Virus record (IMG/VR): IMGVR_UViG_3300022074_005559
DNA: 64,000 nt
Source of the DNA: a virus
Taxonomy: Duplodnaviria > Caudoviricetes
Strand: one strand, 5' to 3'
In this document: positions 13,166 to 56,089 of the stretch, piece after piece
How positions within the stretch are numbered: position 1 is the first letter of the stretch
Layout: each line of letters opens with the position of its first letter
Translations under genes and position numbers: made by a program
Notes under the pieces: model-generated
Databases searched by the model: none
Told to the model about the DNA's origin: nothing
What the model saw: the letters and a program-made list of their open reading frames with translations, nothing else

Positions 13166-14166
13166 TAGAATCCTCTGATAAGTTCTACGTCTATGTCTTG
13201 GTCTATTGCACTTAATATTTGATTGCATCTTGCGTGTAGTTCTACAAAATGTTGTCTATTTTTGTAGGCTCTTTTCATAACATCAGGTAATACTTTTGTA
13301 GTTGCGAGTCGCTTTATTTCTTTACAAAAAAGTTCTTGTCTTACATGACTTTCGTGTTGCAAATCATATGTAAAATCTACAATATCTCTGTAAATGTCAA
13401 ACCCAAGACTTTCCAAATAATGCATCATTCCTTGTTGTCCTAAACTCACAACAATCTTTCCCCAGAGAAATCCTTTATATCCTTTTTCACTTAGCCAAGG
13501 ATATTTTTCTCCTTGAAATGTTTCTGCATTAAAATCGAATAAAAAGTCTTGCTGTGGAAAATACCACTGCGCACTTCTTGGAGGATGATTATAGTCGTCG
13601 TTGTATTCAGGATCGTCAAAGTTTCTAAAAGTTTCACTGCCAATAGTAATCTGTGAGTGAATAGTTCCATCATCTTGCCTGTCTCTGAAACTGACGTATC
13701 CTAGGTGTACAAGATTTTCTTTCACCAAAAAATCATATATTGCAACTCTTTCTGGTGTGTTTCTATTACTTAGGTAGCAATAGGATTTATTTGGCTCGGT
13801 TATATCGGGTAGGTTATAGAGATCTAAATGTAATCCAACTTGTCCTAATGCTATCAAAGGCACACAACAATAGGTAAAGTTGTCATACTTTTGCAAAGCA
13901 ACAAACTCTTTGTCTGGTCTTCTTGCGCAGTAAAAATAAACCAGTTCTGTACATAAATTGTTATTATCTCTTTTATCTAGTAGGTTTTGTATGTGATTTG
14001 CCAGAGATTCGCTAGGAAATAAATCCAGTGCATGATGCACAAACATATGCACATTGCCTCGTTGTTTATAACAAACGCTGATGTTATTTTGTAGATCTAA
14101 AAGTCTAAATCCAGCATCATATAAAGGCGTAGGAATAGCACTTAAATGATAAGGATCTAACTGCAT
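13165..14166 (-). CDS. GT-B-like putative glycosyltransferase (ET...EKxxK family)
   Basis: C-terminal FDFNAETF...LSEKGYKG...LGFDIYRDIVDFTYD is shared with 20412..21368 and 30052..31014 and is reminiscent of GT10-like C-termini. Confidence 0.55.
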   Translation of the reverse strand: MQLDPYHLSAIPTPLYDAGFRLLDLQNNISVCYKQRGNVHMFVHHALDLFPSESLANHIQNLLDKRDNNNLCTELVYFYCARRPDKEFVALQKYDNFTYCCVPLIALGQVGLHLDLYNLPDITEPNKSYCYLSNRNTPERVAIYDFLVKENLVHLGYVSFRDRQDDGTIHSQITIGSETFRNFDDPEYNDDYNHPPRSAQWYFPQQDFLFDFNAETFQGEKYPWLSEKGYKGFLWGKIVVSLGQQGMMHYLESLGFDIYRDIVDFTYDLQHESHVRQELFCKEIKRLATTKVLPDVMKRAYKNRQHFVELHARCNQILSAIDQDIDVELIRGF

Positions 14167-15641
14167 ACCTTAACACCGTATCTTTCCTCGAAGCGATCTG
14201 CGTCACTGCGATTGTTTACCATGGGTTCGCCTTTGATGTTAAGACTGGTATTCAGCAACATAGGACAGCCTGTCATAAAGTACCACTTCTCAAGCAGTGC
14301 TCTTACTCCTGGGTGATCGTTTTTACCTACTGTTTGCACACGACTTGTGCCATCTTTGTGTACAATAGCAGGAAACAGTTCTGGGTTTTTGCAAATATAT
14401 GTTCCTTGCATGTATGGATTTTTATCATCCAGTAGATTACTAAAGTGTTCTGTAAAGTGTTCTTCTAATATCATGGGTGCAAATGGACGAAACTTTTGTC
14501 TGCGTTTAATATCATTTACACGATCCTTGATGTCCTCGCCACGTGGATCTGCAAGTAGACTGCGAGTGCCTAATGCTCTAGGACCAAACTCTGCACGACC
14601 AGTAGCAACACCCACAATCTTTTCAGTCATTAGTTCGCCTATTACAGCATCAACAGGATATTCGCCGCCCATGTCATGTCCTAGATAAGGACCTTGCCAG
14701 TTAAGACGTTTACCATAACGCAATGCCGCGCTGCCTAAACTACTGCCACAGTCACCTGGATTAGGCATAATCCACATATCAGCAACTTCTTTGCGTATCT
14801 TACTGTTAGCAACACAGTTAAGAGCAACACCGCCCATGAACACAAGATTGCGATTTCTGCCGCAGTGTGTTTTCACAAGATTCATAAGCAACTGTTCAAC
14901 GACTTTTTGTGCTCCTGCCGCTAGATCATACTTGCTAAGTCCAGTGCCTGCAAAGTAGTCCCCTGGTAAGCCAGCATGCATGTTTTCTGTAAATGTACAA
15001 CGTTCAGCATCATCCACAAGTTTACCAACTTCTTCAAATGCTGTTAAGTAAGGTTTGCCATATGCCGCCATGCCCATGAGGATGTATTCATCTTCCATGG
15101 GCTTTAATCCAACATAGTCTGTGATTGCACTGTACATTAATCCAATACTGTGAGGATACTTCTGCCCCCATACTTTTTGGTACTGCGCATATCCTTCTGC
15201 ATCATAATGTGCGTCCCATACAGAGATTGTATCCCACTCTCCAATAGCATCTACTACTAGTACAGTAGCAGTGTCGTAAGGACTTGTTTGGAATCCTGCT
15301 GCGGCATGTGTAAGGTGATGATTGTGATAGGCTATGTGCATATCGAAATCAAAGTATTCATGTGCAGCACTGATTTGACGTTCTGGACTTGGTGTCGAAA
15401 ATATTTTACGCCATTCGCCACTGCGCAACTGACGTATTTGTTTTATTAGTGGACGTTCATACCAACTAATATCACTAGGCTCGCCGTAACTCAGTGCATC
15501 ATCTAACAGTGCATGGTTAAGATTGGCATCGTTTTTAACACCACTGTATCTTTCAGCATGTCCCGCGAATAGTATGTTTCCGTTTAAGTCGATTACTGTT
15601 GCGCCAGCATCGTGAAATCCTGCGCTAAGTCCTAGATACAA
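14157..15641 (-). CDS. NodU/CmcH/TobZ-family carbamoyltransferase (probable TTG start 15641; ORF open to 15698)
   Basis: GFHDAG, HHLTHAAAG, VDAIGEW, EYILMGMAAYG, GGVALNCVAN, EFGPRALGTRSLLADPR, RPFAP, VHKDGTSRVQTV and LLNTSLN. Confidence 0.95.
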   Translation of the reverse strand: MYLGLSAGFHDAGATVIDLNGNILFAGHAERYSGVKNDANLNHALLDDALSYGEPSDISWYERPLIKQIRQLRSGEWRKIFSTPSPERQISAAHEYFDFDMHIAYHNHHLTHAAAGFQTSPYDTATVLVVDAIGEWDTISVWDAHYDAEGYAQYQKVWGQKYPHSIGLMYSAITDYVGLKPMEDEYILMGMAAYGKPYLTAFEEVGKLVDDAERCTFTENMHAGLPGDYFAGTGLSKYDLAAGAQKVVEQLLMNLVKTHCGRNRNLVFMGGVALNCVANSKIRKEVADMWIMPNPGDCGSSLGSAALRYGKRLNWQGPYLGHDMGGEYPVDAVIGELMTEKIVGVATGRAEFGPRALGTRSLLADPRGEDIKDRVNDIKRRQKFRPFAPMILEEHFTEHFSNLLDDKNPYMQGTYICKNPELFPAIVHKDGTSRVQTVGKNDHPGVRALLEKWYFMTGCPMLLNTSLNIKGEPMVNNRSDADRFEERYGVKVCS

Positions 15642-16344
15642 AAGCCCGCTCCTGTACAAAAGTTCCGGCTGTCTTCTTATTTCCTTCTTCCCATCCATTG
15701 TTGGTGAGAAGTTGTTTTACATCGTTATTGAAACCCATGCTACCACAAATCATTACTTTGTCTTTGCTAGCAACACTGTCTGTCATCAATGTTCCCTGTT
15801 TGATCATTGTGGTAATACGTTGATTGCAACCAGTCCATTCTCTGTCCTGAGTTACAATAGGTGTGTAGTCAATGGGCAACTCTTGTAGAAACTCATGATA
15901 ACTGTGTAGCTCTGCAGGTGTTCTCACACTCCAAGCAACATGTATTTTATCAAAACTATCAAACGTTTCTGGATCACGCAGTAAACTTATAAAAGGCGCA
16001 ATGCCTGTGCCTGTTGCTAGCATCCATAAGTTGCCGCCCAGTTCTAAGTTTGCAAGTGTTAGTGTACCCGTAGGTTTGTTGCCTACTTCAATAGTATCTC
16101 CAACACGAATGTGTTGCAGTCTACTTGTAAGCGGCCCATCTTGAACTTTAATACTGTAGAACTCTATATAGTCATCATACGGACCGCTTGTGTAACTGTA
16201 CGCTCTATTAATGTCATCATCACCCATGCCAATCATAGTAAACTGTCCAGCAGTGTATCTATAACTTACAGGACGTTCAGTGCGTATTCTAAAAAGCGTA
16301 TCTGTGTAGTGCTCTACTTCAATAACTTTTAAAAAATCACTCAT
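15625..16344 (-). CDS. fpr: ferredoxin/flavodoxin-NADP+ reductase
   Basis: RAYS FAD motif, GPLTS, ATGTGIAPF, MICGS and terminal ERAF. Confidence 0.92.
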   Translation of the reverse strand: MSDFLKVIEVEHYTDTLFRIRTERPVSYRYTAGQFTMIGMGDDDINRAYSYTSGPYDDYIEFYSIKVQDGPLTSRLQHIRVGDTIEVGNKPTGTLTLANLELGGNLWMLATGTGIAPFISLLRDPETFDSFDKIHVAWSVRTPAELHSYHEFLQELPIDYTPIVTQDREWTGCNQRITTMIKQGTLMTDSVASKDKVMICGSMGFNNDVKQLLTNNGWEEGNKKTAGTFVQERAFVSRT

Positions 16345-16451
16345 TTGTATATAAAAGGATCCCGTTTTTTAAGTTCTTTTAAACGCTTGCGGTAGCGTAG
16401 TTCCATTTTAATTTTATTATAAATCTTTTTAAACCAGTTAACCACTGACAT
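16341..16451 (-). CDS. 36-aa basic peptide (absent from ORF track)
   Basis: Translated by hand as MSVVNWFKKIYNKIKMELRYRKRLKELKKRDPFIYK. ATGA-coupled to fpr, with a GAGG RBS upstream. Confidence 0.75.
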   Translation of the reverse strand: MSVVNWFKKIYNKIKMELRYRKRLKELKKRDPFIYK

Positions 16452-16623
16452 ATATTTCCTCATCCTCAGGTCTGTACCAAACTTTTTGGTGATAAAACTT
16501 TCCGAGAAGTTCTTGTACTTCTTTAGCTCTATTAGGCTGTGTTTGCTGATAACTTATTAAACTCATTTCAATAAGTGCAAGTTCTTTTACTGTTAGTTTA
16601 AAATCTTCATTGGGTTTAACCAT
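16438..16623 (-). CDS. small conserved hypothetical protein (61 aa)
   Basis: Fits the operon packing; ELLGKFYHQKVWYRP...YVSG tail. Confidence 0.7.
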   Translation of the reverse strand: MVKPNEDFKLTVKELALIEMSLISYQQTQPNRAKEVQELLGKFYHQKVWYRPEDEEIYVSG

Positions 16624-17037
16624 TTATAGTTCACCGTCCTCTCTCATTTTTGCTCTAATATTTGTAGCACTAATATTATGTATGTCAGCACCTAAGTCAT
16701 GTTCTGTGAATGTGTAGCCTACACCTCTGCCGTAACTAATGTCTACAATATTTGGTACACGCATAATGATGTACTCTCGTGCATATTCATACCCTGCAGC
16801 ACTTAGTCCTTCTTTAATATTCTTAAACACTGTTTCTTGGTCAAATGGATTATCAGTTTGTGCGGCTGTGCGTCCTGCGCCAGCGTCATTGCCTACGATA
16901 CCGCCTACGTCACGCACCATAATACATACTTGTCCTGTTTCTGCAAGTGCCCGTTCGAACAGTGCAGTGTGTCCATCATGCCATGGTTGCCATCTACCTA
17001 GCATTTCTGTTGTAGGCTTTTGCCAATCAAAACTCAT
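16624..17037 (-). CDS. HxGH nucleotidyltransferase (cytidylyltransferase/NadM-like)
   Basis: MLGRWQPWHDGHTALF, ISYGRGVGY and ISATNIR (KMSKS-like position). Confidence 0.8.
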   Translation of the reverse strand: MSFDWQKPTTEMLGRWQPWHDGHTALFERALAETGQVCIMVRDVGGIVGNDAGAGRTAAQTDNPFDQETVFKNIKEGLSAAGYEYAREYIIMRVPNIVDISYGRGVGYTFTEHDLGADIHNISATNIRAKMREDGEL

Positions 17038-17513
17038 TATATTCTCTCCGTTGGTTTATTTTGCATTCTTAACATATAGTTGTTTACTACTTTACATAGT
17101 TCAGCATGTGTGTCATTGAACCATTCTGCTACATGATAGTCGCACAGTGGCGGTGCTTCAAACATTTTATTTGTTTGTTCAAATGTACTGCCTGGTGCGG
17201 CTGGTCCGTTCACACTTTGTGATTCTTTTACTGTGTCCATCCATACTGTAAAGTCTGGATCAAACTGTGCTCTTGCTGCTTCTGTTGGACATACAAAGTC
17301 TGCTACAGCAATTTTACCTGCCATTACAACTCCATCGCTAAGAAAGCGCATACGCAGTGCCTGTCTCATCCTGCCTTCTGGAGTAAAGTCCCAATCATCG
17401 TAATGGGTGCGTACTTTATCTGCATTGATCCATACAGCGCCTAATAGTTCTGCAAGTGGTTCGGCAAGTGTGCTTTTACCACTGCCTGGTAGCCCAAATA
17501 TTAATATTTTCAT
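17037..17513 (-). CDS. adenylylsulfate-kinase-like P-loop kinase
   Basis: GLPGSGKST, INADKVR, DWDFTPEGRMRQA, ADFVCP and FEAP. Confidence 0.8.
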   Translation of the reverse strand: MKILIFGLPGSGKSTLAEPLAELLGAVWINADKVRTHYDDWDFTPEGRMRQALRMRFLSDGVVMAGKIAVADFVCPTEAARAQFDPDFTVWMDTVKESQSVNGPAAPGSTFEQTNKMFEAPPLCDYHVAEWFNDTHAELCKVVNNYMLRMQNKPTERI

Positions 17514-18598
17514 GATAAACTCTCGATTTGTCTTTGTTCGTGATCTGCGTTACTCCAGTGATAATCAAAAGTTGCACTGACTGTGTCGCATTCGATCTTG
17601 TAAATGTCTAGGAAGTCGCCCAGTTTTTGCCAAATCTCTTCGGCAGTGTCTGTTCCAAAACTATTTAGCAAGTCAACTTGACCTATGTTTAAATAACCAC
17701 TGCTAAGGCTAGGATCGTCTGGATTAAAATCATTTGCTGTAAGCCAACTTCTAAATGCATCTATTTCATCTACAAACCAACTTTGTTGAGGATTGTAAGT
17801 AATGCTGTTGCCCCATTCAATGTCAAACTCTCCACTGTAATACTGCAAGTGTGTAATAGCTTCGCATACAGTAGCAGTAAGTTCTGGGGCATGCTCGTCT
17901 CTGAATACTTCAATAAGTGTTTTACCTATTTGACACCAATGCATGTACACACCGCCTAGCACACGGTCATAGCCATTTTCTACAAAGCCCAATCTGTGTT
18001 CATCTGTAAGTGTGCGTCTTGGGCAACGAAGAAATGTTGTGATCTGACTAGGGCGTACCCATTGCGGTGCTTGTATGATTTTACGTCTACTTAAACACAG
18101 TGTTTCCATTTCGTGGCAAATATTGTTTAACTGACGCACTGCATGACGTACACTTGGTGACATGTGTTCAGTGTATTCACTTGGATTTTCAACTGTGCCT
18201 TCCAGCACTTCAAAATGATTGTGCAGTTTATTCATTACTTCGTGTTTAACTTGGCGTCCTTTATTAAGCGGACTATCATCCATTCTGCCCACAGGATATT
18301 CATCGCCGAATGTAACCACGTCTGGGGCAAACCATTCTTCAATCATATAGTCTAAACCGCTTTGATTTATTGTAAAGATATGACGATTAAGTTCTTTGCA
18401 TAAAAAATCTAAACTGCGTTGTGTATAAGGAAAACCGTGAAAGCAATAGTTCTTTTCTAGGTGCAAACTTTTTAGCAGTACATCTTGCTTGAGTGCTATA
18501 ATCCAGTCTTGCGCAAGTTGATTGTCTGCCGGGTGTATATTATAATCCAACAGTTCTCCGGTTTTATAGTTACGCAGCACTACTTTAACAGATTTCAT
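17510..18598 (-). CDS. hypothetical protein (362 aa) inside the radical SAM block
   Basis: Long ORF with ATGA-type overlaps at both ends; no recognised motif. Confidence 0.8.
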   Translation of the reverse strand: MKSVKVVLRNYKTGELLDYNIHPADNQLAQDWIIALKQDVLLKSLHLEKNYCFHGFPYTQRSLDFLCKELNRHIFTINQSGLDYMIEEWFAPDVVTFGDEYPVGRMDDSPLNKGRQVKHEVMNKLHNHFEVLEGTVENPSEYTEHMSPSVRHAVRQLNNICHEMETLCLSRRKIIQAPQWVRPSQITTFLRCPRRTLTDEHRLGFVENGYDRVLGGVYMHWCQIGKTLIEVFRDEHAPELTATVCEAITHLQYYSGEFDIEWGNSITYNPQQSWFVDEIDAFRSWLTANDFNPDDPSLSSGYLNIGQVDLLNSFGTDTAEEIWQKLGDFLDIYKIECDTVSATFDYHWSNADHEQRQIESLS

Positions 18599-19862
18599 TC
18601 CACCATTCCTTCACTTTACTGTCCATGAGTGTATCCTCAAAGCGCATACCTCCTCTGAGATTATCCATTGCTTGCATACGCCACTTGCCACTTATACGAG
18701 CTTTGGCATATTCATCTGGATATTGTTCTTCAAAGACAGGACGCTCAAGTAAACTCTTAAGCATGTTTCTTATTGTAACATTGTCTACGCCAGTAGTCAA
18801 TAACAGTTGGTTTACTACAAAGTCTAAATGTTTGCGTGGAAGGAAAAGAGGACTCATTGCAATATCTGGAGTAAAGGCAAATGTTACTTTTGCTAATATG
18901 TCTGCATCGTACTTTTTTGCAAGGTCACAGATGAAAGGTATTTCCCAAAGCCCAGGCAGTGTTAGTGTAAAGTCAATGCGCATTTTTCTTCTGTCGTTGC
19001 CCGCATATTCTCTGCCTTGTGCAAAATATTCTTCCCACTGCACCCAGTCTAATCCTGTGCGGATGTATTCACCCACTGCACCTGTGCCATCTATACTAGC
19101 ACATACTTGCCAATCTCTTACATGTGCAAGTATGTCCTTATAAAGATTAACGCCTTTGTAATCAACGCGACTGAGATTAGTGTTATACCGTGCATAGAGA
19201 TTAGGACCATCGCCTAGTTCAACAATGCGGCGCATGTAACGCCAATGTTGCTCATACATAAGTGGCTCTCCGCCTACCCAGTATACTTCTTCAATACGAT
19301 GCTGCTCAACAGCATCACTAAACTCTTGCTCTACTACATCTGCTTGAAAAGTTTCAATAGCCTTTTTTACAGGCTTTTCCATCCAAGGTTCAACTTTGCC
19401 TTGCTTGCGAGCTTCTGTTTCCCAACTACTACTTAACATTGGACCGCACATACGACATTTAAAGTTGCACAAGTTACTGAAACGATAATCCCAACTAACA
19501 GGTTTCATTGTTGTGTACCCGTCCCAGTCTGTGTGTGCTACGACATCTTCGTATTTGTGTGAAAACAAATGATTGAAATAATCTCTGTATACGTCTTGGT
19601 TAAGCAGTCTTTTATCGCATACTTGACATGCATCTGGCACTTCGTTGCGCAACATCTGCATGCGTATATTGCGTATGTGTTCACCATTCCACCATTCATC
19701 CAGTGTTTGTGGTTTGTACTCGTTAGTGCCTTCTGCTGTGTCGATGTACTGTTTAAAGTTTTGTGCTGGCTCGCGGCTGGCGCAACACAGTCTGCGTTCA
19801 CTTTGTGGACTTAGATAAGTGTGCGTCCATGGTGCCATGCATAGGTTATCTGGTTTGTTCAT
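18585..19862 (-). CDS. radical SAM protein with N-terminal twitch-like domain (strand corrected to -)
   Basis: The reverse complement at 19862 reads ATGAACAAACCA, and TTA at 18585-18587 is the stop. Motifs CNFKCRMC, GGEPL and YNTN; N-terminal CMAPW...CC...CQVC. Confidence 0.93.
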   Translation of the reverse strand: MNKPDNLCMAPWTHTYLSPQSERRLCCASREPAQNFKQYIDTAEGTNEYKPQTLDEWWNGEHIRNIRMQMLRNEVPDACQVCDKRLLNQDVYRDYFNHLFSHKYEDVVAHTDWDGYTTMKPVSWDYRFSNLCNFKCRMCGPMLSSSWETEARKQGKVEPWMEKPVKKAIETFQADVVEQEFSDAVEQHRIEEVYWVGGEPLMYEQHWRYMRRIVELGDGPNLYARYNTNLSRVDYKGVNLYKDILAHVRDWQVCASIDGTGAVGEYIRTGLDWVQWEEYFAQGREYAGNDRRKMRIDFTLTLPGLWEIPFICDLAKKYDADILAKVTFAFTPDIAMSPLFLPRKHLDFVVNQLLLTTGVDNVTIRNMLKSLLERPVFEEQYPDEYAKARISGKWRMQAMDNLRGGMRFEDTLMDSKVKEWWNEIC

Positions 19863-20415: not shown

Positions 20416-21368
20416 GATTCTATAAACTCCATTAATGGATCAACAAGTTGTTCAACAAACAACTGTTTTACAATGCTGGGATTGTAAAAATGTTTTTTAT
20501 TATGTACAAGTATACGCTGAGTTTCACTATCTGTAAAGATAGTTTTGTCGGCAATGATATCTTTTACTACTGTGTGTATCATATCCAGTCTGACTTGTTC
20601 ATCAGATTCTGTGTCGTACCCTTCGTCGATAGCATGAGAGAAAGTTTCAAACCCTAGTCTCTGCATTTCAGCTAGTGTGCCTTGTTGTCCATAAACAACA
20701 TAAGCATGCTCGAATGCCATTGGTTTAAATATTTTTTCACTGACATGTATCCAGTTTCTACTGCGGTCTTGTACGCTTACATCTTTTACTGTGCTTTCAC
20801 TTACTAAACTAAAGCGTGTATCTCTATACCAGTCTGGGTTTATATGCCGTTGCCAGTTTTCATCGTAAGGTGCATCCACAGCATTTTGTAATGTTATGTC
20901 GTTGCCTACATAACTGTAAATATTATCATCTAGTACACTATAAAACTTTCTATATAAATCATTTCTCCATCCAGTGCGCATATGCATCAAACAAATAAAA
21001 TCTCGAGTTGGATTATGCTCAACGGGTTTATTATACCCTAGTGCAGTGTACCAAATACTTTCATGCCAACGTATAAAATCACGTGGACGTAATGTGTAAT
21101 CTGCCGCAAAGTCTAGATGTCCATCCCAGCAGTCCCAGCACTTGTCAATGATTAATCTCATGCCTCTGTCTCTGAGTGCAAGTTCGTCCTGTGCATTGCC
21201 AGTACAAAACTCATGATAATCAACGACTACCACTGTGTTTTTTACATCATAGTATTTTGCAGTGTCTAGTAGTTCAACGTTAAAATATTCAGCAAGATGA
21301 TCTTCCATAAACCAGTTACTGAATATAGTTTTGTCTTGACTTATTAGCAGTGTAGGTTTACAGTTCAT
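20412..21368 (-). CDS. GT-B-like putative glycosyltransferase (ET...EKxxK family)
   Basis: FSLVSES...VSEKIFKPM...LGFETFSHAIDEGYD; paralog of 13165..14166 and 30052..31014. Confidence 0.55.
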   Translation of the reverse strand: MNCKPTLLISQDKTIFSNWFMEDHLAEYFNVELLDTAKYYDVKNTVVVVDYHEFCTGNAQDELALRDRGMRLIIDKCWDCWDGHLDFAADYTLRPRDFIRWHESIWYTALGYNKPVEHNPTRDFICLMHMRTGWRNDLYRKFYSVLDDNIYSYVGNDITLQNAVDAPYDENWQRHINPDWYRDTRFSLVSESTVKDVSVQDRSRNWIHVSEKIFKPMAFEHAYVVYGQQGTLAEMQRLGFETFSHAIDEGYDTESDEQVRLDMIHTVVKDIIADKTIFTDSETQRILVHNKKHFYNPSIVKQLFVEQLVDPLMEFIES

Positions 21369-22539
21369 ATCCTATAACCTTTGCCATCTTAGCGTGGCTT
21401 TCTGCAAAGTTTTGATTGCGATATAAATCTGTTAGTCTTAGTTTTGTGTGCAACCCTTGTGCATCTTGCGTTCTGCTATGCATGACTAACTCTTTTATAC
21501 TGTGAATGTCTTGTGCATACTTTGCCCATTTCACTTGACATTTTTGCAAGTATAACATTAATACACTTTGCGCACTGTTGGGTGTGTTAACAATACTGAA
21601 CTCCCAAGGGTCATGCATTAGGTTAAAATGCACACTGTCAAAGTCCATGGTTTCTGCCCAAGTTAATACTTCGTCCATATAGTATACATTTTGTAGATTC
21701 CATGTTACACATAACTGTGTAGTAATAGGGTAACCTTGATCTCTAAGTTGATTTACTTTTTTAATATTATTATTTGCAGTACGCCACTTAGCACCGTAGC
21801 GTTCATATTCAAAACGTTTACCTGTGTTGTCCACACTGAATGCTATTTGCACATGTTTAAAATGTTGCCATATTGTAGGATCTTTTGGATATTGTGTTGC
21901 GTTTGTATTATAATGAATATCAATATCTTTTGCATAACCACGATCCACTGCACCTTGTAGTAAATCAAAATGCTGTTTAATCATCCATGGCTCACCACCA
22001 GTAAACTCAAAATACTTTATTTGCGGTAACAGTTCGTCCATGTTATCCCAGAATGTTTTACTCTTTCTGGGCCATTGTCCATCTTTTAACCATTTGTATG
22101 CACTGTGTTCTTTTGCAGGGATTTGATCAGCAACATAATCTATTTCTTCCTGTGCCCACTTACTACTGCTCCAACTACCACAGATACGACATTTAAGATT
22201 ACATATGTTGCCTAGTTTTAAATCTATAAACTGTAGTTCGTGTCCCGTTTCAACTGCGTCCCAGTCTACTTCTATGTGCTTGAACTTTTCCAACATATAC
22301 TGACGTTTGCTTTTCTTACCAGCACCTTCTTCACGCCAGCAGTTACGACACTGCCCTGGTTCTTTGTTGTCTCTAAATGCTGCACGGAGATTCTGCATAT
22401 ACTCGCTGTTAAAGCCGTCTTGCAGTGTGTGCGTTTTAAGATTCATATCCGGTATTTCATTAGTGGTTAAACAACAAGGACGCATTGTTCCCAATGGCGT
22501 TGTTTCAATGCTGATCCATGGCAGTATACATTTAGGCAT
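21358..22539 (-). CDS. radical SAM protein with N-terminal twitch-like domain
   Basis: CNLKCRIC, FTGGEP and YNTNAT; N-terminal CILPW...PCC...CRNC. Confidence 0.93.
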   Translation of the reverse strand: MPKCILPWISIETTPLGTMRPCCLTTNEIPDMNLKTHTLQDGFNSEYMQNLRAAFRDNKEPGQCRNCWREEGAGKKSKRQYMLEKFKHIEVDWDAVETGHELQFIDLKLGNICNLKCRICGSWSSSKWAQEEIDYVADQIPAKEHSAYKWLKDGQWPRKSKTFWDNMDELLPQIKYFEFTGGEPWMIKQHFDLLQGAVDRGYAKDIDIHYNTNATQYPKDPTIWQHFKHVQIAFSVDNTGKRFEYERYGAKWRTANNNIKKVNQLRDQGYPITTQLCVTWNLQNVYYMDEVLTWAETMDFDSVHFNLMHDPWEFSIVNTPNSAQSVLMLYLQKCQVKWAKYAQDIHSIKELVMHSRTQDAQGLHTKLRLTDLYRNQNFAESHAKMAKVIGYEL

Positions 22540-23848
22540 ATTTGCGCAACCTTTCTAGTTCTGGAAATACTGTCCAAAAACTTTCATCCCTGAACCCGTC
22601 CATTTCGTCATTTTTTTCTACAAACTGCGGTAATAAATGACTGTTGTCTGCGCTATTCATGAATGTCATTGCACTGCGAAATCCATTTGTTGCACGAGTA
22701 AGATAGTCACCTTCTGTAGCAATCCATGCAATGTGTTCGTTGTATAGTTGTTCAAGTTCTGCTTTCATGTCTGCAGGCAATATGTCTAATCTAAAACGAT
22801 CAGGGTCTTGCAGTATGTTAACATTAAAATCTTCTGCTTTAATCAATCCTAGCTCAACCCATTCTTTATGGAAGTCTAGTATATTGTAAGCATTCATAAC
22901 ACTTAGCGTAGCACTTATATAAAAGTCTACTGTAGGACAAACTTCAAGCATACGCCGGCGGTTCTCTACAACTTGATTCCAATCTGTGCCTTTGCGCATA
23001 AGTTCGCCACGAGCATGATTAGCATCTAGACTGGCACCAATACTTACTACATCAAACTTATTCCATAAGTCAAGTACGTCTTGTTGTTTAAACACTAGCT
23101 CTGTAAAGTTTGTGTTATAGTTAAGACGTACATCTGTTCTACCTCGTTCAATAAGTGCATTAAGTAGATTATAATGCTCTTTCATCATAAGTGGTTCGCC
23201 GCCCGCAAAATAAACATTTTCAATACTGTCTAGATGTGGCTGTAGTTGTTCCCACATATCCATTTCATAACGACCTGTATAACTTACGTTAGGATGATCT
23301 TTTGCTAGCCAACCATATTTTTTTGCTTCTTTTACCCAGTTACTACTAAAAATATCACCGCAGGTTCTGCAACTTAGATTACACAAGTTACTAAAGCGAA
23401 TGTCATAGTAAGTTAGTTTAAACTCATCGAGGCTTCCGTCTGTGTTTGTTGCATCTGCTTTTCCAATGTGATGTCCGTGATTTTTATTTGCACTGTAGCG
23501 CATGCTTACAAAACCGCTGCTTTCTTGTTCATAGCATTTAGTACACTGACTGCATGGTTTATCTTGCAGCATGTTTACACGCATCTGTTTAAGATCATCA
23601 CTGTTCCATATTTCTTCCATTGTGCTTTCTCTGAGTGTGCCCAATGGCTGATCCATTCGTGCAAGACAGCAAGGATATGCTTCGCCTGTAGGAAATGCAT
23701 GCAAATGTACCCAAGGTAGAATACAAAAACTTTCGCTTGTAAGTAATCTGTCTCGCTGTGTATCTGTTAAATCTTCGACATCTATATACACAGGTTTACG
23801 AGTATGATAGTCATAGTTTTTGTAGTAGTTTGCTATATCATCGGTCAT
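22532..23848 (-). CDS. radical SAM protein with N-terminal twitch-like domain (ATG 23848 by ATGA coupling)
   Basis: CNLSCRTC, FAGGEPL and YNTNFT; N-terminal FCILPW...PCC...CTKC. Confidence 0.93.
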   Translation of the reverse strand: MTDDIANYYKNYDYHTRKPVYIDVEDLTDTQRDRLLTSESFCILPWVHLHAFPTGEAYPCCLARMDQPLGTLRESTMEEIWNSDDLKQMRVNMLQDKPCSQCTKCYEQESSGFVSMRYSANKNHGHHIGKADATNTDGSLDEFKLTYYDIRFSNLCNLSCRTCGDIFSSNWVKEAKKYGWLAKDHPNVSYTGRYEMDMWEQLQPHLDSIENVYFAGGEPLMMKEHYNLLNALIERGRTDVRLNYNTNFTELVFKQQDVLDLWNKFDVVSIGASLDANHARGELMRKGTDWNQVVENRRRMLEVCPTVDFYISATLSVMNAYNILDFHKEWVELGLIKAEDFNVNILQDPDRFRLDILPADMKAELEQLYNEHIAWIATEGDYLTRATNGFRSAMTFMNSADNSHLLPQFVEKNDEMDGFRDESFWTVFPELERLRKYA

Positions 23849-25221
23849 AGGTTTTCGTACCATTCTGCTAGTTCCGGAAATGTAATCGGAAAGTTTTTAT
23901 TACGTCTTACATCATACTGCTGGTAAAACTTTTTAAAATCGTTATGTAGTTTAGGCATGTCAAAACCTTCACTGTGAGGCTTGTTTACTACTTGTAAATA
24001 CTCGATGAGTCTGTCCAGTTGTCCTAGTTCAAACTCGTGAAAGTCCAAGCCTGCGTTGCGTAGTTCTGTAAGCCGTTGTGCATGACGCTGTCGCTGCTCT
24101 GTTGGCAACACCAGTGCGCTTTGAAAACTAGGGAAACGCAGTATATTAAAACTCATTACACAGAATCTATTACCGCCATATTGTTCGCGCTTTGCCATAA
24201 TACGATGTACAAGCTCTGGCAGTGTTTCTAAACACAGTGCATTCACTGTCATCATACAGTGTGTATCAATGTCTGCTTCATGCAAGCGTTGCACATTTTC
24301 CCACCATTGTTTAAACACCATGCCATCTCTAATATATTCTGCGGCACCGTCTATTGCTTCTGCACTTGTATATACACCCAAACTAGGCAAACGTTCTCGC
24401 ACATTTACCAGTCTATCAATAAGTTCTGGCTTTGCTACTAGGTTACTGTTAATAGCAAGACTGGTTTGTGTCTTATCGCCATTTTGTTCAAACCATTCAA
24501 TAAGTCTCCATAAACTGTCACTCATTAATGGCTCGCCACCCGTAACACGCAACTGCCTCAGTGTTTTGTGTAGGTCAGTTTCCCACCATTTAAAAAACGC
24601 TTCTACATATGGATTTGTTTGATCCCGTTTAAACAGTTGACTGCTGTTGTGCGGATGTATAAAGTGACCTCTGCCATCACTGACAAGGTCTTTGTATGCA
24701 CCATTTTGTTTGAGGTCTTTTACCCAAGTACTCGAAAATGCAGGGTTGCAATAACTGCAAGCAAAGTTACATGTTCTGTCAAAGGCGATCTCAAGACTTC
24801 TGAGGTCAAAATCGTCTCTGTAATCTGATTCAAATGCATCTGTTAGTTCCTCATTAGTATATATCCAACTTTTGTAAACACGGTCACTGATATGCTCTGC
24901 TCCCATGTCCTCAATCTTCCAACAATATTCACAGCCTTGTGGTCGTTCTCCGCACTGCATCTGATGTCTTTGTTGTTTTTTCTGCGGAGTGTTGTGCAGT
25001 AGTTTAGGATTTTTTGTAACTTCTACTGGATCAATCTTATGTGGCAGAGGATGGTGACAACTTGTAGTCATGCCACTGCCTAACCACACTGTGGCATTAT
25101 ACCATTTAGCACCACAAAAACTAGCACTGCGAGTGTCTAGGTGTTCACGTTTAAAATCATGCGGCGGTAGTGTATTTTGCAGTACTGCTTCTAAGTGATT
25201 ATTTGGATTGCCTTCGCTCAT
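23845..25221 (-). CDS. radical SAM protein with N-terminal Cys-rich domain (second subfamily)
   Basis: CNFACSYC, VTGGEPL and INSNL; N-terminal FCGAKW...SCHHP...CEYC. Confidence 0.93.
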   Translation of the reverse strand: MSEGNPNNHLEAVLQNTLPPHDFKREHLDTRSASFCGAKWYNATVWLGSGMTTSCHHPLPHKIDPVEVTKNPKLLHNTPQKKQQRHQMQCGERPQGCEYCWKIEDMGAEHISDRVYKSWIYTNEELTDAFESDYRDDFDLRSLEIAFDRTCNFACSYCNPAFSSTWVKDLKQNGAYKDLVSDGRGHFIHPHNSSQLFKRDQTNPYVEAFFKWWETDLHKTLRQLRVTGGEPLMSDSLWRLIEWFEQNGDKTQTSLAINSNLVAKPELIDRLVNVRERLPSLGVYTSAEAIDGAAEYIRDGMVFKQWWENVQRLHEADIDTHCMMTVNALCLETLPELVHRIMAKREQYGGNRFCVMSFNILRFPSFQSALVLPTEQRQRHAQRLTELRNAGLDFHEFELGQLDRLIEYLQVVNKPHSEGFDMPKLHNDFKKFYQQYDVRRNKNFPITFPELAEWYENL

Positions 25222-26158: not shown

Positions 26159-26657
26159 TAGCAAAATATTCTTTTATTTGTGTTAGCACTGTGCGTGTAC
26201 TTTCCTGTCCTTCTTGTGTGTCTTGGCGTACACCCAGTCTACGTTGTATATCCAGTAGCAAAGGATTATCGAACTTCCAAACTATTGTTCCGTTATGACC
26301 AAGGTATGTATTGCCTTGTTGTGTGAAAGGTTCGTCCCAGGGTGCAACAATAGGATACTGTGTACATTCCCATAATATGTTTTTAAGGTCAATGTTGTTA
26401 ACATGTATATCAGTAACTTCTATAAACTTATCATGTTCATTATACATGTTTTTTCCATAATGTTCAACCGTTAACTTGCTTGTGCCATCAGGTTTAGGTA
26501 ACACTATAAACTCTACACTGTCTCCGTCTGCTTTAAAGTTTGCCACTTGTTCACCATCCCATAACACTCTGCACAAGGGCCAGCCATGAAAAGGATCGTG
26601 TTCACTATGAGTGTAGGATATCTTTAAAGTGATAGGTATTTTGTTTAATACGCTCAT
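26145..26657 (-). CDS. hypothetical protein (170 aa)
   Basis: Co-oriented, overlapping ORF; no motif recognised. Confidence 0.7.
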   Translation of the reverse strand: MSVLNKIPITLKISYTHSEHDPFHGWPLCRVLWDGEQVANFKADGDSVEFIVLPKPDGTSKLTVEHYGKNMYNEHDKFIEVTDIHVNNIDLKNILWECTQYPIVAPWDEPFTQQGNTYLGHNGTIVWKFDNPLLLDIQRRLGVRQDTQEGQESTRTVLTQIKEYFANETD

Positions 26658-28104
26658 AACTTGCTTTAAGTCTTTTTAGTTGATGGTCGCCATTCCATAC
26701 AGTGTAGCCCAGGTCCATGAGCAACTCTTGTAGGTCTATTCGTCGATTGATGCGTTCAAGCAGTGTTAGTTTAGGATTGTCTTTACTGGTCCAGTCTAGT
26801 CCAAATAATTCTGTGTCATCTTCTTGTGTAGGACTAAGTCCGTAGTGTATACTGTCTTGGTGCAATGGACTGCCCTCATCAATACTTAGTGTGCCTCCGA
26901 GGTTAACACCAAATATAGTTCCGTCCATTGCATAGCCTTGGTATTTTGTAAACTGTTGCATAGTTTCTAAATGATGATCTTCAGTCTCTGTAGGGTATCC
27001 AACAATCATTAAGAAGTAACAGTTAACATTATTTAACCTAAACTGCTCCAAGGTGTAATCCAAGTCAGCATTGGTAAAGCCTTTGTTCATGTCTATGCGT
27101 ATTTGTTCGCTAAGACTTTCCACACCCATTGCCAGACCATTCATGCCACTTTGTGCGGCAAAACGATAATCCTCAGGTGTGAGTTGTTTTGCTGTTCGTA
27201 CAATCCATTGCCCGCCCCAACTAAAAAACTTGTCTGGTAGATTGTTTGCACGATAGTAGTCTACCAGGCTGCGACTAAGGTCACGGAAACTTTTTAGACT
27301 ACCATTAATCAAACTGTCTGTAAAAAAGAAATCAGTAACACCATGTTTTTCATAATGGTGTATCATTTCCTGTGCTACATTGTCACCGTCACGGTATGTA
27401 TACTTTTTCCAAAACGCATGTATATCACAAAAACTACAGCGTCTTACACAGCCGCGACTTGTGGTTACTGGCAACTGTGTGCGTCCAATAGCATAATGAT
27501 ATTTGTAATCTATAACATCATCGTAGTCTGGAAACGCAACACTGTTTAGATCCTCAATCTGTACATAGTTGTCATTGTTTACACCTGGCCCTGCATTATC
27601 TACAAGTATGTCTAATAGTGCATACTCTCCTTCGCCTCTTACATAGTAGTCCACAAGTCCGACATTTTTTAGTGCATTACCAAAGTCATTGGTCTGTGTA
27701 GCAATACCTGTGGTGCTCAGACCTGCACCCCCTATGATAATCTTGCCTTTATAGTGCGGACGAAGAAGTTTACATAGTTCTTGCGTGGCACGTTGACATT
27801 CAAATGTAAACACACTGATGCCAACAAAGCGAGGATTAACATCTAGCACATAGTCTACTACCTCTGCATACCATGTGTCAATGATTGTTTTACAACGGTC
27901 GTTTAGTTCGCTGTTAGGAATAGTAAAATAGTTTGTGATCGTTTCAAAGTCATCTTCGTCTTTAATGCTGTCCAGCAGTTCAAAGTTTGTGTCTTTTACA
28001 GTGCATGTAAAGCCGTTTTCTTGCACGACACCTTTTAGCAAACTAGTGCCTGCAGGAGGGTACACTAAACTAATGCGTGGTACATTAAGTAGCAATAAGT
28101 CCAT
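26605..28104 (-). CDS. cobalamin (B12)-binding-domain radical SAM protein (start 28104)
   Basis: N-terminal PPAG..LLKG, FVGISVF and KIIIGG (B12-binding Rossmann-like), TSRGCVRRCSFC, FTDSLIN, GVESLS and FLMIVGYPTET. Confidence 0.9.
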   Translation of the reverse strand: MDLLLLNVPRISLVYPPAGTSLLKGVVQENGFTCTVKDTNFELLDSIKDEDDFETITNYFTIPNSELNDRCKTIIDTWYAEVVDYVLDVNPRFVGISVFTFECQRATQELCKLLRPHYKGKIIIGGAGLSTTGIATQTNDFGNALKNVGLVDYYVRGEGEYALLDILVDNAGPGVNNDNYVQIEDLNSVAFPDYDDVIDYKYHYAIGRTQLPVTTSRGCVRRCSFCDIHAFWKKYTYRDGDNVAQEMIHHYEKHGVTDFFFTDSLINGSLKSFRDLSRSLVDYYRANNLPDKFFSWGGQWIVRTAKQLTPEDYRFAAQSGMNGLAMGVESLSEQIRIDMNKGFTNADLDYTLEQFRLNNVNCYFLMIVGYPTETEDHHLETMQQFTKYQGYAMDGTIFGVNLGGTLSIDEGSPLHQDSIHYGLSPTQEDDTELFGLDWTSKDNPKLTLLERINRRIDLQELLMDLGYTVWNGDHQLKRLKASYERIKQNTYHFKDILHS

Positions 28105-28723
28105 TTGCGTAGTATTCCCAACTGTGTGTATCTTTGTAGTCCCAATGACATCTATGCCACTGTGTATATATTTGTTTTGCACGAATGTAGTCTATGTCTA
28201 CAAGCCATCTTGTGTCATGATAAAAATGATCAAAGTGCCCTTGGTATAAACTGTCTGTATAAATCACATCAACGCCACTAGTCTCCATTGCGCACTTGCG
28301 ATCATACATTATTTCGTGCATGTTAAGTATGTTTTCTTCTCGTGTACTGCCGCCAAAATCCAGTATGTTACCTGCTTTTTCTATGTAAGCTCTGACTTGC
28401 CAATCAAATGCCATGCGACTTTTTGGTAGCACTGCTACACAATGTCCTAGTGTTTGTAGTTTTTTGAAGTCTTTGGTGTTGTGGAAAGCACTGTGGTTTA
28501 CATACAAGTTTGACTCTAAACTGTCTATGTTTACACTATCTGCTACTATGTTTATTCTTGTTGTGCGTTCCTTTTCTATCCAACTGTTAAACGTACCATC
28601 ATACAGTGTGTTTACCAAGTTATAATCGAAAGGACAGGTGTAGCGATTGTCTAGTAAGAAAAGGTTTTTAACTAGATTTGTTCCTGCTCCTAAATCACCT
28701 AACAGTATTAGACTATCTTGCAT
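28085..28723 (-). CDS. putative sulfotransferase-like / P-loop protein
   Basis: N-terminal LGDLGAGTNLVKN resembles a 5'-phosphosulfate-binding loop; weak evidence. Confidence 0.45.
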   Translation of the reverse strand: MQDSLILLGDLGAGTNLVKNLFLLDNRYTCPFDYNLVNTLYDGTFNSWIEKERTTRINIVADSVNIDSLESNLYVNHSAFHNTKDFKKLQTLGHCVAVLPKSRMAFDWQVRAYIEKAGNILDFGGSTREENILNMHEIMYDRKCAMETSGVDVIYTDSLYQGHFDHFYHDTRWLVDIDYIRAKQIYTQWHRCHWDYKDTHSWEYYANGLIAT

Positions 28724-30068
28724 GATACTTGCACTGGTTCCAAAAACTTGCCATCTCCGGAAAGGTTGCTAAAAAGTCTGTGCCTCTCCGACGATCGTGT
28801 TCATTAAAGAATCTATAAAAATCAGCACGTTTGCGTTCTACGTCTGAAGTGCCTTGTAACATCCAATCTAAATCACGTTGCATTTTTTGAACTTCATAGT
28901 CTTTAAAGCCATGCATTTCGTCTAAGTTATCTTGCATATATCTAATACAATCCTGCAAAACTAACTGATATTCTCCAGGCAGTATTTGCATGCTTTGCCA
29001 TTCTGGAGTATACAATAGTGGAGTATCAAACCATACACGTTGATATGTATCAGTGTAAGTTTTACGCAAGTATACAATATGCTCTAGCAACCGTTGTAAA
29101 CCAAGTATGCTGAGATTGTTCATTGTAATGATAAATGTAAGACTACTGCGTCTTGGGATGTCTCGAATAAACTCTTCACATCTATTTATCGCCAGGTCAA
29201 AGTCCAGTCCATGTCGGATATATTCTGCTTGCGCACCCCAAGTGTCTAGACTTACAAACTGCATGAAGTGTTCAATGTTTTCTCCATCACATAGTCGCTG
29301 TACATAAGTTTTGTACTTGTTCCACACTGTGGGATCAACACTGAAGTTACTAGTGACGTTTAAATGCAAGTCTTGCTTGGGATTGTCTAACACATAATCA
29401 AACACACGATATGTGTTAGGATCCATAGTAGGCTCGCCGCCTGTCATTCTAAAGTGTTGTAACGATGGGTAAAGGTCGGGCCACCATTTCCAGAACGCTT
29501 CTCGGTAGGGGTTGTCTTCTCTGTTAGGTATAGCCCTGCGTTCTCCGGAAAAGTGTTCTGGGGCATTGTGCGGTACACTTGTGGGCCATGCTCCGTGTTC
29601 GTTGGATTCACGAGTCCACATGCTGCTAAACTGAGGACTGCAATAACTGCACTTAAGATTACATACATTATTAAAGTTTACCTCCATGTAACTTGGGTTA
29701 ATATCTGCTAAAGGACGATTTATTATCTCATCAAAACTATTCATAGCCCATGGCTCACCACTGCGATAATGTCTATCGCTGATATTGCCTTGACTTTCTA
29801 TATTCCAACAATACTTGCAATCCGTACACTTGATGCCTGCCATCATTTCTGCACGACTTGCTTTTTTGTGTGCAGTGTTGTGCAGTGCGCTTGGATTAGT
29901 TGCTAATGGTTCAACTGGTATTCGATGCAGTGGCGGATGATAGCAACTGTTTGTGTGTCCGGTTGTAAGATGCAAACTAACTTGTTTCCACTTAGCCAAA
30001 CAAAAACTATCGCTGACTGTTGCTAGTTTATCTTTGGCTGCTAGTGCATCTTTATAGTAATCGCTCAA
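28713..30068 (-). CDS. radical SAM protein with N-terminal Cys-rich domain (second subfamily; TTG start)
   Basis: CNLKCSYC, MTGGEP and VTSNF; N-terminal FCLAKW...SCYHP...CKYC; paralog of 23845..25221. Confidence 0.92.
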   Translation of the reverse strand: MSDYYKDALAAKDKLATVSDSFCLAKWKQVSLHLTTGHTNSCYHPPLHRIPVEPLATNPSALHNTAHKKASRAEMMAGIKCTDCKYCWNIESQGNISDRHYRSGEPWAMNSFDEIINRPLADINPSYMEVNFNNVCNLKCSYCSPQFSSMWTRESNEHGAWPTSVPHNAPEHFSGERRAIPNREDNPYREAFWKWWPDLYPSLQHFRMTGGEPTMDPNTYRVFDYVLDNPKQDLHLNVTSNFSVDPTVWNKYKTYVQRLCDGENIEHFMQFVSLDTWGAQAEYIRHGLDFDLAINRCEEFIRDIPRRSSLTFIITMNNLSILGLQRLLEHIVYLRKTYTDTYQRVWFDTPLLYTPEWQSMQILPGEYQLVLQDCIRYMQDNLDEMHGFKDYEVQKMQRDLDWMLQGTSDVERKRADFYRFFNEHDRRRGTDFLATFPEMASFWNQCKYHAR

Positions 30069-55400: not shown

Positions 55401-56089
55401 GGTGATGCTTCATACAAGTAGTCTGTACCGCTGTATGTACCTTTTACAAGTTCAAAGTCCAGTGTTTGCGCACCTACATTGTTTTGAAAATCATATACAG
55501 GCACAGTGCCTTCGCCGATTCTAATATTATATTCTTCAATATTGATACCACCAATGGTTGTCTTCAGTCCAGGATTACCAAACTGTTGTGTGCTAACCAT
55601 TGCAGCATTTAGTATTGTTGTAAACTGTTCTAAGAAGTCACTGTTAGTAGGATCGCCCCAAGTGATTTCTTGGTCACGCAGATTGTTACCATTACTGTCT
55701 GATATATCTTCTGTGGTCTGTACGCTGGTTACTTTAAGTAAGCCTCTAGCAATCTGCTGACGCTTTGGATAATAGTTAAGCATGCGAGCCAAGCGTAGTA
55801 TGCTGTCTCTGCGTTCTGCTGTTTCTAAAAAGTTCTCACGAGCGTTTAAGTCTGCACGGAAACTTAGGCTTTGCCCAAGAAATGCAATAAGGTCAATGAG
55901 TGCAATATACTCACTGCTTTCAATAAAATCGTTGAAATCTTCTGGGTAGTATGTGCGGATATAATCCACCATACTTTTACGAATAGTTTCGTAATCATAA
56001 CTTTGAAAGTCTGCTTCACGAAAGGTTTGGTATACTTTTTTCCAATCTTCAGCAGCGAATAAGTTTGCTTGTCTTGTGCTTGCAGCCAT
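52499..56089 (-). CDS. baseplate wedge subunit, T4 gp6-like
   Basis: DFQSYDYETIRKSM, SSEYIALIDLIAF, NARENFLETAERRDSILRLA, QDRMITGEDY; adjacent to the gp25-like gene. Confidence 0.88.
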   Translation of the reverse strand: MAASTRQANLFAAEDWKKVYQTFREADFQSYDYETIRKSMVDYIRTYYPEDFNDFIESSEYIALIDLIAFLGQSLSFRADLNARENFLETAERRDSILRLARMLNYYPKRQQIARGLLKVTSVQTTEDISDSNGNNLRDQEITWGDPTNSDFLEQFTTILNAAMVSTQQFGNPGLKTTIGGINIEEYNIRIGEGTVPVYDFQNNVGAQTLDFELVKGTYSGTDYLYEASPQPSSTTNIIYRNDNRGFNSANNGFFFYFKQGNLQSADFSIAEKLPNRTVDIDINNVDNNDVWLYQLDDRGNETTRWDKVPAISGNNVIYNSLSVNNKNLFTVRSRADDQISLVFGDDVFSNIPTGSFRVYFRTGAGTTYKIIPDDMANIQIVMPYISHVNQIENLTINLTLQSTIANASGRESLIDVKQKAQQQYYTQDRMITGEDYQVLPYTKFSNIIKSKAINRTASGISRYLDVRDTTGKYGSTNIVAEDGIFYRTEDLQKFQFTFITDSDISNVIAQQVEKNILKNDSLHFYLKNYGGINVEGLNIDWNLTTTTTGTCTGYFKNDVDAAQKIGQFTSSNLKYAKVGSLLKFIAPGGKVFDINNNLINGTSGTINTRDFIWASITTVITDGTNQGKGNLDDGSGPVTLSEVIPADAVLKEVIAPWVTTLGSTVRNAVIQAVGDYKTFGLRYDRDTQSWAIIESLNLNQANTFSLTNAGNTSNTSLDNSWWFKFTNDGSTYTVNYRSTSYIFESKLETRFYFDKDLTIFDPRTGKTIKDKINILKVNALPDSTSSLAVDYAMQVDDVITETDGYILTNRIKVTFPDIDSDGVVDNPEVFDIVVAPTVGSSTKIVFYKTETSSGGYLTYTPVDSTVIEQRYTTQATIQEVLAQFTSGQIFYASSDDKFYILSVSGANVKSIAQTTDYVKRTGRADLLFQYTHNSPNNRRIDPSPSNIIDVFLLTRQYNTDYRNYVTDITSNVPKPNNPTTNELRDAFGELEQYKSVSDTLIFNGITFRPLFGDKADEELQATFKVVKNNSTLVSDSEIKERVIRAINDYFAIENWDFGDTFFFSELAAYLYNALAPDVLSIIIVPKLATSNFGSLFQIQSQRDEILVSAATVNDIEVIDVITANSLQASGTVTNTTSTSLASESVSAGSSSSAVNTVTNNISTTTTSSSGSSGSSGSGSSGSGSSGSGSSGGYGY
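52515..52573. repeat. 15-bp tandem repeat CCGCTTGATCCACTG, about 4 copies (encodes SGSSG)
   Basis: Perfect units at 52515, 52530 and 52545, plus a 14/15 unit at 52560. Confidence 0.95.

Follow-up and report, generated by a model that had tools for sequence, protein, structure and literature searches.

The window analysed here, a 64,000-nucleotide stretch of the virus record IMGVR_UViG_3300022074_005559, comes from a marine jumbo myophage that has not been cultured and carries, among genes for radical S-adenosylmethionine (rSAM) enzymes, the gene fpr (15625-16344, minus strand) for a bacterial-type ferredoxin/flavodoxin-NADP+ reductase (Fpr). On balance, we consider it probable that fpr is an accessory gene whose product supplies electrons from NADPH through host carriers, predicted to be co-expressed with the rSAM operon without being an obligatory part of it. 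The [4Fe-4S] clusters of rSAM enzymes require a low-potential one-electron donor, normally flavodoxin/Fpr, and the original prediction held that the phage supplies its own electron-delivery step through a reductase dedicated to this operon. The first half of that proposal is plausible, as the gene is intact, of the right enzyme class, co-oriented with the operon genes and overlapping them, but the dedication to the operon does not survive a comparison with related phages, most of whose rSAM arrays lack fpr.

The phage Fpr and its gene junctions

The open reading frame (ORF) of fpr runs from ATG to TAG and encodes 239 amino acids (aa). Pfam recognised NAD_binding_1 (5e-9), with FAD_binding_6 slightly below the cut-off, and a phmmer search of the PDB matched 15 bacterial ferredoxin-NADP+ reductases (FNR/Fpr), 10 of them at E 1.5e-54 to 1e-43. 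Those at the top, with 4f7d and 2bgi first, are of subclass I and come from Burkholderia, Rhodobacter, Brucella, Xanthomonas, Azotobacter and Pseudomonas, whereas the E. coli-type subclass II was matched more weakly (E 5e-29). An AlphaFold2 model (predicted local distance difference test, pLDDT, 89.4; predicted template modelling score, pTM, 0.89) was compared by Foldseek with known structures, giving template modelling (TM) scores of 0.86-0.93 against 13 subclass-I structures and of 0.91-0.93 against 2vnk, 6rr3 and 1a8p. Model and Pfam matches both conform to the two-domain FNR fold, a beta-barrel that binds flavin adenine dinucleotide (FAD) followed by an NADP-binding alpha/beta domain.

The residues expected of such an enzyme are in place: R47-A-Y-S50 and G70-P-L-T-S74 for FAD, and G112-T-G-I-A-P-F118, R141 (the 2'-phosphate Arg of S-x-R) and C200-G201 for NADP(H). 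The C-terminus, E-R-A-F-V-S-R-T (E232-x-A-F-V), aligns with the ends of 2bgi and 4f7d and is of subclass-I type. Across 30 relatives these cofactor motifs are invariant, with P71, S74 and the last residue of A-F-V nearly so. The original prediction of an intact bacterial-type Fpr is therefore confirmed by the ORF, the full set of cofactor motifs and the fold (TM 0.91-0.93). Judged from its sequence, the protein gives no sign of decay and is predicted to be functional as a FAD enzyme of bacterial subclass I, with a preference for NADPH over NADH suggested by the NADP-motif residues. It is ∼17 residues shorter than bacterial homologs across the same core, and it scored 126 bits against the NCBIfam model PRK10926, below the equivalog cut-off of 390; because PRK10926 is a model of the E. 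coli enzyme, which is of subclass II, we attribute the miss to subclass and clade divergence and not to a loss of family features. The 239 aa make up the FNR module alone, with no fused Fer2 domain, and a BenC-type match was weak and confined to the FNR part (PDB 1krh, E 3e-6).

Both ends of fpr overlap other genes. Upstream, its ATG overlaps the TGA of a 36-aa basic micro-ORF (16341-16451, minus strand) in an ATGA junction, while the preceding 61-aa gene (16438-16623, minus strand), for which Pfam gave no match and of which 88% identical copies exist in L295 and L296, does not overlap fpr. The translational coupling claimed in the original prediction thus holds in that the overlaps are real at both fpr ends, but the upstream partner is the micro-ORF and not the 61-aa gene. 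Downstream, the NodU/TobZ-type carbamoyltransferase (14157-15641, minus strand; Pfam Carbam_trans_N and Carbam_trans_C) most likely starts at the TTG at 15641, a position placed through L040-L042, whose N-termini read M-x-(I/L)-L-G-L-S, and through a Shine-Dalgarno AGGAG ∼9 nucleotides (nt) upstream, inside fpr; the resulting overlap is 17 nt, and the longest carbamoyltransferase ORF, from the ATG at 15698, would overlap fpr by 74 nt. Promoter-like and terminator-like sites between 13500 and 19000 were no more numerous than in shuffled sequences. The fpr and rSAM genes share one strand, with overlapping junctions at fpr.

The peptide of the micro-ORF (∼35 aa, basic) has 89 matches among the collected loci, with nearly every rSAM-array locus represented; they lie in the window, in L041-L120, and in L139, L143, L164, L172, L173, L177, L197 and L200. 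Its C-terminus reads DPFIYK, of which the first five residues are invariant and the last Lys nearly so. Variation at the three codon positions is 0.22, 0.125 and 0.39 across 80 unique DNAs, a pattern that indicates that the micro-ORF is coding. It is better conserved than the surrounding enzymes, and it stands directly before the carbamoyltransferase even in loci without an N-terminal twitch (N-twitch) rSAM array, as judged by tblastn with the rSAMs of the window. Possible roles of the product are those of a scaffold, a precursor or leader peptide, or a small subunit, and its position before the carbamoyltransferase may tell more about what the cluster makes than fpr does.

Distribution of fpr among rSAM arrays and the surrounding gene cluster

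To follow fpr across relatives we used 80 IMG/VR loci that carry the closest rSAM gene, nearly all of which share one set of genes, rS1-rS5, u362 and the carbamoyltransferase. Within 10 kb of the array, fpr was present in two of the 80 (L041 and L042), and it was found anywhere on the contig in three of 50 long array-bearing viral contigs, which amount to ∼17 genome-equivalents by CheckV completeness. Of the three near-complete genomes with an array, one has the gene: neither Fpr nor a 7Fe ferredoxin was found in G001 (93% complete, 17 PF04055 matches) or G002 (95% complete, 14 matches), and in G003 (91% complete, 9 matches) Fpr lies ∼200 kb from the array. These counts do not bear out an fpr dedicated to the rSAM operon, and the co-occurrence check as a whole found little correlation between fpr and rSAM arrays in related phages.

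The gene order of these loci also shows how fpr came to its place. Many array loci have u362 followed at once by the micro-ORF and then the carbamoyltransferase, with no further gene in between, and in the subclade of the window a kinase, a nucleotidyltransferase and fpr are inserted among the three, with fpr between the micro-ORF and the carbamoyltransferase. The closest relative without fpr, L043, has the kinase and the nucleotidyltransferase followed by the micro-ORF joined directly to the carbamoyltransferase, and no fpr on its whole 44.7-kb contig. Because the micro-ORF and the carbamoyltransferase adjoin without fpr in other phages, fpr is an insertion into a pre-existing unit. For this reason the further claim, that the presence of fpr supports the cluster being one functional pathway, could not be upheld; since most rSAM arrays lack fpr, the gene is no marker of a single pathway, and since they work without it, host carriers would normally suffice.

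Approached from the other side, small fragments with Fpr rarely carried an rSAM gene (one case of 20), and kinase fragments with no fpr in the 10-kb flanks examined did so more often (14 of 40). Long Fpr contigs are rich in rSAM genes, with 20 Radical_SAM-domain matches in G006 and 17 in G007, mostly N-twitch, and 14 N-twitch matches in G526, and each checked Fpr contig of at least 48 kb has at least one PF04055 match (20, 17, 9, 5, 3 and one weak). This richness is uninformative on a link to fpr, because Fpr-free contigs of the same group are rSAM-rich as well. The three contigs (G006, the contig of L011; G007, of L018; and G526, of L232) are partial, 150-198 kb long, and hold 13-19 matches to NCBIfam NF033640 versus five in the window. 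In G006 and G007, fpr lies >40 kb from the arrays and adjoins the DNA polymerase gene PolB.

In the window, fpr sits inside a minus-strand run of genes that extends from ∼34 kb down to 11.9 kb and contains five NF033640 N-twitch rSAMs, a B12-binding rSAM (B12-rSAM), the kinase, the nucleotidyltransferase, fpr, the carbamoyltransferase and several unknown genes. The N-twitch paralogs, all on the minus strand, lie at 18585-19862 (NF033640 1.2e-89, with a CxxxCxxC motif; a possible electron client), 21358-22539 (2.7e-93), 22532-23863 (3.1e-118), 23845-25221 (8e-90) and 28713-30068 (1.9e-93). The B12-rSAM (26605-28182, minus strand) is of class B and methyltransferase-like, with Pfam B12-binding and Radical_SAM matches and a PhpK-like NCBIfam match at 1.2e-26. 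Nearer to fpr are an APS-kinase-like P-loop kinase (17037-17513, minus strand; Pfam APS_kinase 2.7e-7, PDB 2yvu 2.7e-5) and, on the same strand, its partner, a small NMNAT-like HxGH nucleotidyltransferase (16624-17037; weak Pfam and NCBIfam matches). This pair (16624-17513 in the window) was found together in 77 of 80 kinase loci (L121-L200), most of them without rSAM arrays, and 12 of the loci have thyX within 10 kb. Beyond the run, the baseplate wedge (52499-56089), hub, gp25 and gp53 homologs of the window match T4-type PHROGs, and the wedge protein is ∼35% identical to its counterparts in Atu_ph07, GAP32 and XaC1; one ORF of 4410 aa fills 39267-52499 (minus strand) between tail-fibre-like genes and the wedge gene. 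In a megablast against isolate phages, the operon DNA had no match in any of them.

Other contexts of the phage Fpr and competing readings

We propose that Fpr would take hydride from NADPH and give single electrons to flavodoxin or to a 7Fe/2Fe ferredoxin, the carrier being either that of the host or one encoded elsewhere in the phage genome. The compact Fpr clade is patchily distributed among uncultured marine jumbo myophages, probably as an accessory metabolic gene, and in the subclade of the window fpr was inserted between the conserved 36-aa micro-ORF and the carbamoyltransferase; from this place behind the micro-ORF we propose that it is translated by coupling and expressed with the rSAM/tailoring operon. 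Fpr would most likely give the infected cell a larger supply of low-potential electrons, to the benefit of phage Fe-S and radical enzymes that would include the five N-twitch rSAMs and the B12-rSAM, and would act as a booster and not as an obligatory subunit of the array. Both this carrier and these client enzymes are ones that we infer for the phage Fpr.

The wider neighbourhood of the gene was surveyed in 39 viral and 80 metagenome loci whose Fpr is 55-79% identical to that of the window, and tallied over 102 distinct loci. PolB is adjacent to fpr in 40 loci and a GNAT-like gene, u150, stands directly upstream in 21, while an IscA-like gene lies within 4 kb in 17 and a ribonucleotide reductase (RNR) gene within 5 kb in 5. 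Within 3.5 kb are found QueD (16 loci), a carbamoyltransferase (10), FolE (5), an N-twitch rSAM (4) and the 7Fe ferredoxin FdxA (3); a superoxide dismutase (SOD) gene is adjacent in 2. Most phage fpr genes are thus neighbours of PolB, RNR, QueD/FolE or IscA and not of rSAM genes. In the PolB lineage, too, the gene is patchy, with fpr in 46 of 54 close relatives and in 0 of 21 distant ones, as would be expected of an accessory gene. No link is constant, and the neighbours are those expected if Fpr provides reducing power generally for Fe-S and radical chemistry and is sometimes recruited into tailoring operons.

Several observations weigh against the accessory role. Five diverged relatives (L040, L041, L042, L295 and L353) have kept the gene in the same place within the operon at Fpr identities of only 58-67%, which could mean a more specific pathway link, and two further architectures put fpr in rSAM- or carbamoyltransferase-linked operons (L351, where it is flanked by two distant N-twitch-like rSAMs, and the L283/L345 type described below). 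As rSAM genes are common across the phage group, their presence in Fpr contigs does not discriminate. Finally, the 64-kb window holds no electron-carrier gene, as the original prediction had noted: the ferredoxin Cys motif is absent from every coding-strand ORF of the window, and no window ORF scanned had a Pfam flavodoxin or Fer2/Fer4 match.

Redox-related neighbours of fpr elsewhere speak for accessory electron supply. In G003, a 91%-complete, 316-kb jumbo phage (L206, G003:C1:292000-308000), a 106-aa Azotobacter-type FdxA (with DUF3470) and a B12-rSAM lie 2 kb and 5 kb upstream of fpr, and the start of an Fe/Mn SOD gene downstream overlaps it. Within 9 kb this genome holds the B12-rSAM, FdxA, u152, Fpr, the overlapping Fe/Mn SOD and a cupin, a group that looks like a viral redox/Fe-S support cluster. 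The FdxA...u158-Fpr arrangement recurs in L348 and L354, and the overlapping SOD in L354 and L355. A bolder picture, which we hold only tentatively and regard as unlikely, is that of a private electron-supply kit of rSAM-rich marine jumbo phages (9-20 Radical_SAM-domain matches per contig, up to 19 of the N-twitch family), composed of the compact Fpr and sometimes a 7Fe ferredoxin, SOD and IscA-like carrier, with Fpr wired into a micro-ORF-led tailoring unit so that a viral rSAM pathway is powered directly from NADPH. Electrons might then pass straight to the N-terminal twitch clusters.

The dedicated source of the original prediction, in which the phage Fpr would reduce the [4Fe-4S] clusters of the operon rSAMs through a host carrier, or directly via their N-terminal twitch clusters, and in which its position would mark one pathway, we consider unlikely. 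It draws on the overlap and co-orientation of fpr with the operon genes, on the position shared by the five diverged relatives, on the rSAMs around fpr in L351 and on the B12-rSAM 5 kb from FdxA-Fpr in G003. Set against these are the 47 of 50 array contigs and two of three near-complete genomes that lack fpr, the same operon without it in L043, the presence of an N-twitch rSAM within 3.5 kb in only 4 of the 102 distinct fpr loci, the location of fpr beside PolB and >40 kb from the arrays in G006 and G007, and the failure to find a ferredoxin or flavodoxin gene alongside fpr in the window.

The frequent association with PolB might point instead to nucleotide and DNA metabolism. Here Fpr would keep a class Ia RNR (its NrdB diferric-tyrosyl cofactor, via a YfaE-like ferredoxin), QueE or other replication-linked redox enzymes running, and its place in the operon would be incidental. 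The 40 PolB-adjacent loci, together with 5 near NrdA/NrdB/Grx, 16 near QueD and 5 near FolE, are in accordance with this role, but the PolB adjacency belongs to a single lineage, the immediate neighbours are mixed (a BMP-like binding protein, UvsE, ClpP and a ligase) and are not QueE or QueC, and the window has no RNR gene. We rate this role as distinctly improbable. Membership of a queuosine operon was likewise rejected, the immediate neighbours being unrelated genes.

In another replication setting, the kinase of the window and fpr occur together in a different phage type (L037, IMGVR_UViG_3300001460_006830) that has an NAD-dependent ligase, a DnaB-like helicase, a primase and PolA. Its replication module contains a kinase, a small cupin and Fpr, the kinase lying two genes upstream of fpr, and the kinase and Fpr are 61% and 55% identical to those of the window, a likeness that suggests transfer of a segment between phage types.

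As in the SoxRS response of bacteria, Fpr might serve redox homeostasis, its use of NADPH keeping ferredoxin/flavodoxin pools reduced so that Fe-S proteins of the infected cell are spared oxidative damage, a role that is compatible with accessory electron supply. The Fe/Mn SOD overlapping the end of fpr in G003 and L354, the same pair in L355 and the IscA-like genes near 17 loci speak for it, but SOD adjacency is limited to 2-3 loci and does not occur in the window, and we think this role very improbable.

A second type of operon, with fpr as its last gene, consists of a micro-ORF, a carbamoyltransferase-like gene, a 480-aa protein, u150 and Fpr. It is found in L283, L289, L345 and L350, and probably in L360/L362, where fpr was seen by tblastn only with no ORF called; this group holds the closest relatives of the window Fpr with readable context. 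The fpr neighbours in L283/L345 include 480-aa and 249-aa proteins. The u150 gene (141-158 aa) stands directly upstream of fpr in 23 of 166 Fpr loci, no more than 10 nt away from it, and does so in at least three gene contexts (for example L206:8633-9091, L283:3243-3677, L345:7543-7995 and L351:1918-2394); it occurs without fpr in three loci and was not found in the window. Its predicted fold is GNAT/malonyl-CoA-decarboxylase-like, and it was rejected as a flavodoxin-like carrier on that ground. This gene, coupled to fpr in other phages, may tell more about the cluster product than fpr.

That Fpr is instead a tailoring partner, the reductase for an oxygenase, for E1/E3-type sugar deoxygenation or for the micro-ORF/carbamoyltransferase module, is scarcely credible despite this recurrent operon and the u150 gene preceding fpr in it, as Fpr has no Fer2 domain of the E3/AscD or BenC type, u150 is not a redox protein and is absent from the window, and the E1/E3 role in particular was rejected because the window DegT is a true aminotransferase (7b0d at 3.9e-99, far above E1 3bb8 at 2.9e-26).

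Origin of the Fpr clade and comparison with known systems

A protein search returned many Fpr relatives of 232-241 aa, 66-91% identical to the window Fpr and some on contigs of 200-343 kb. Members of this group are ∼55-91% identical to one another, and the best of 400 sampled Pseudomonadota genomes reaches 50-51%, a value that does not depend on the unpublished G499 included in that sample. A long branch (95-100 by the Shimodaira-Hasegawa-like approximate likelihood ratio test, SH-aLRT) separates the phage Fprs, a compact phage-specific clade, from those of bacteria. In the tree the in-operon Fprs are interleaved with others, needing at least two changes, which suggests at least two origins of fpr at the operon site, although a single clade passes the approximately unbiased (AU) test (p 0.235).

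Among 185,579 species genomes there was one Fpr match, on a contig in a Legionellales metagenome-assembled genome (MAG). This 42.7-kb contig (L040, PBLX01000002.1, 'MAG: Legionellales bacterium SP228') is syntenic with the window operon, in the order rS3, rS2, rS1, u362, kinase, nucleotidyltransferase, fpr and carbamoyltransferase, and we rejected it as a cellular donor of fpr because it is a phage contig misbinned into a bacterial MAG. A tblastn search of Fpr against 50,697 phage records (INPHARED) gave 12 matches, and the regions of three were examined (CAKLQH020000004.1, AGRM01000004.1 and OQ572413.1). All three are filed as phage and carry fpr. One is a 232-kb contig that bears the label 'Acinetobacter phage MD-2021a' but looks bacterial, another is a contig of a Salmonella genome, and the third is an unverified entry with no annotation. 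These three were therefore rejected as true phage cases, being mislabelled, unverified or bacterial, and such misfiled records can mislead surveys of phage metabolic genes.

Viruses with a dozen or more rSAM enzymes need to feed them low-potential electrons, and the compact Fpr clade, common but optional in uncultured marine giant phages, is a candidate for bench study of this viral electron supply.

Phage electron carriers are known from cyanophages, whose ferredoxin PetF is annotated as an auxiliary metabolic gene. In the jumbo cyanophage PhiMa05 both a ferredoxin and an FNR are annotated (PMC8093824), so that there, too, one section of a host-type electron-transfer chain is virus-encoded. 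The PhiMa05 FNR gave no match to the window Fpr in the tblastn search of the 50,697 phage records, and unlike the cyanophage carriers the clade of the window is a non-cyanobacterial-type Fpr that is unlinked to photosynthesis. The PhiMa05 annotation was the sole mention of a phage FNR in the literature searched (PMC8093824), where no description of the Fpr clade was found.

Closer in function is the E. coli Fpr/FldA system, which activates rSAM enzymes and MetH and follows the principle proposed here, with electrons passing from NADPH through FAD and a one-electron carrier to an rSAM [4Fe-4S] cluster or to cob(II)alamin. The E. coli Fpr belongs to subclass II and the window Fpr to subclass I, and flavodoxin was found neither in the window nor in five Fpr-bearing phage contigs. 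BenC, MmoC and E3/AscD have an FNR module fused to a Fer2 [2Fe-2S] domain, whereas the window Fpr is without Fer2. The nearest likeness is to the subclass-I bacterial enzymes of Rhodobacter capsulatus (FPR, 2bgi/2vnk), Azotobacter vinelandii (1a8p), Pseudomonas aeruginosa (FprA, 2qdx) and Brucella ovis (6rr3), which have the same fold (TM 0.89-0.93) and 36-43% identity to the window Fpr and have in common with it all FAD and NADP motifs, the A-F-V and the short tail. Compared with these, the window Fpr has lost ∼17 core residues through loop deletions in the NADP domain and, unlike them, it is encoded by a phage and falls in a separate clade made up of phage proteins alone.

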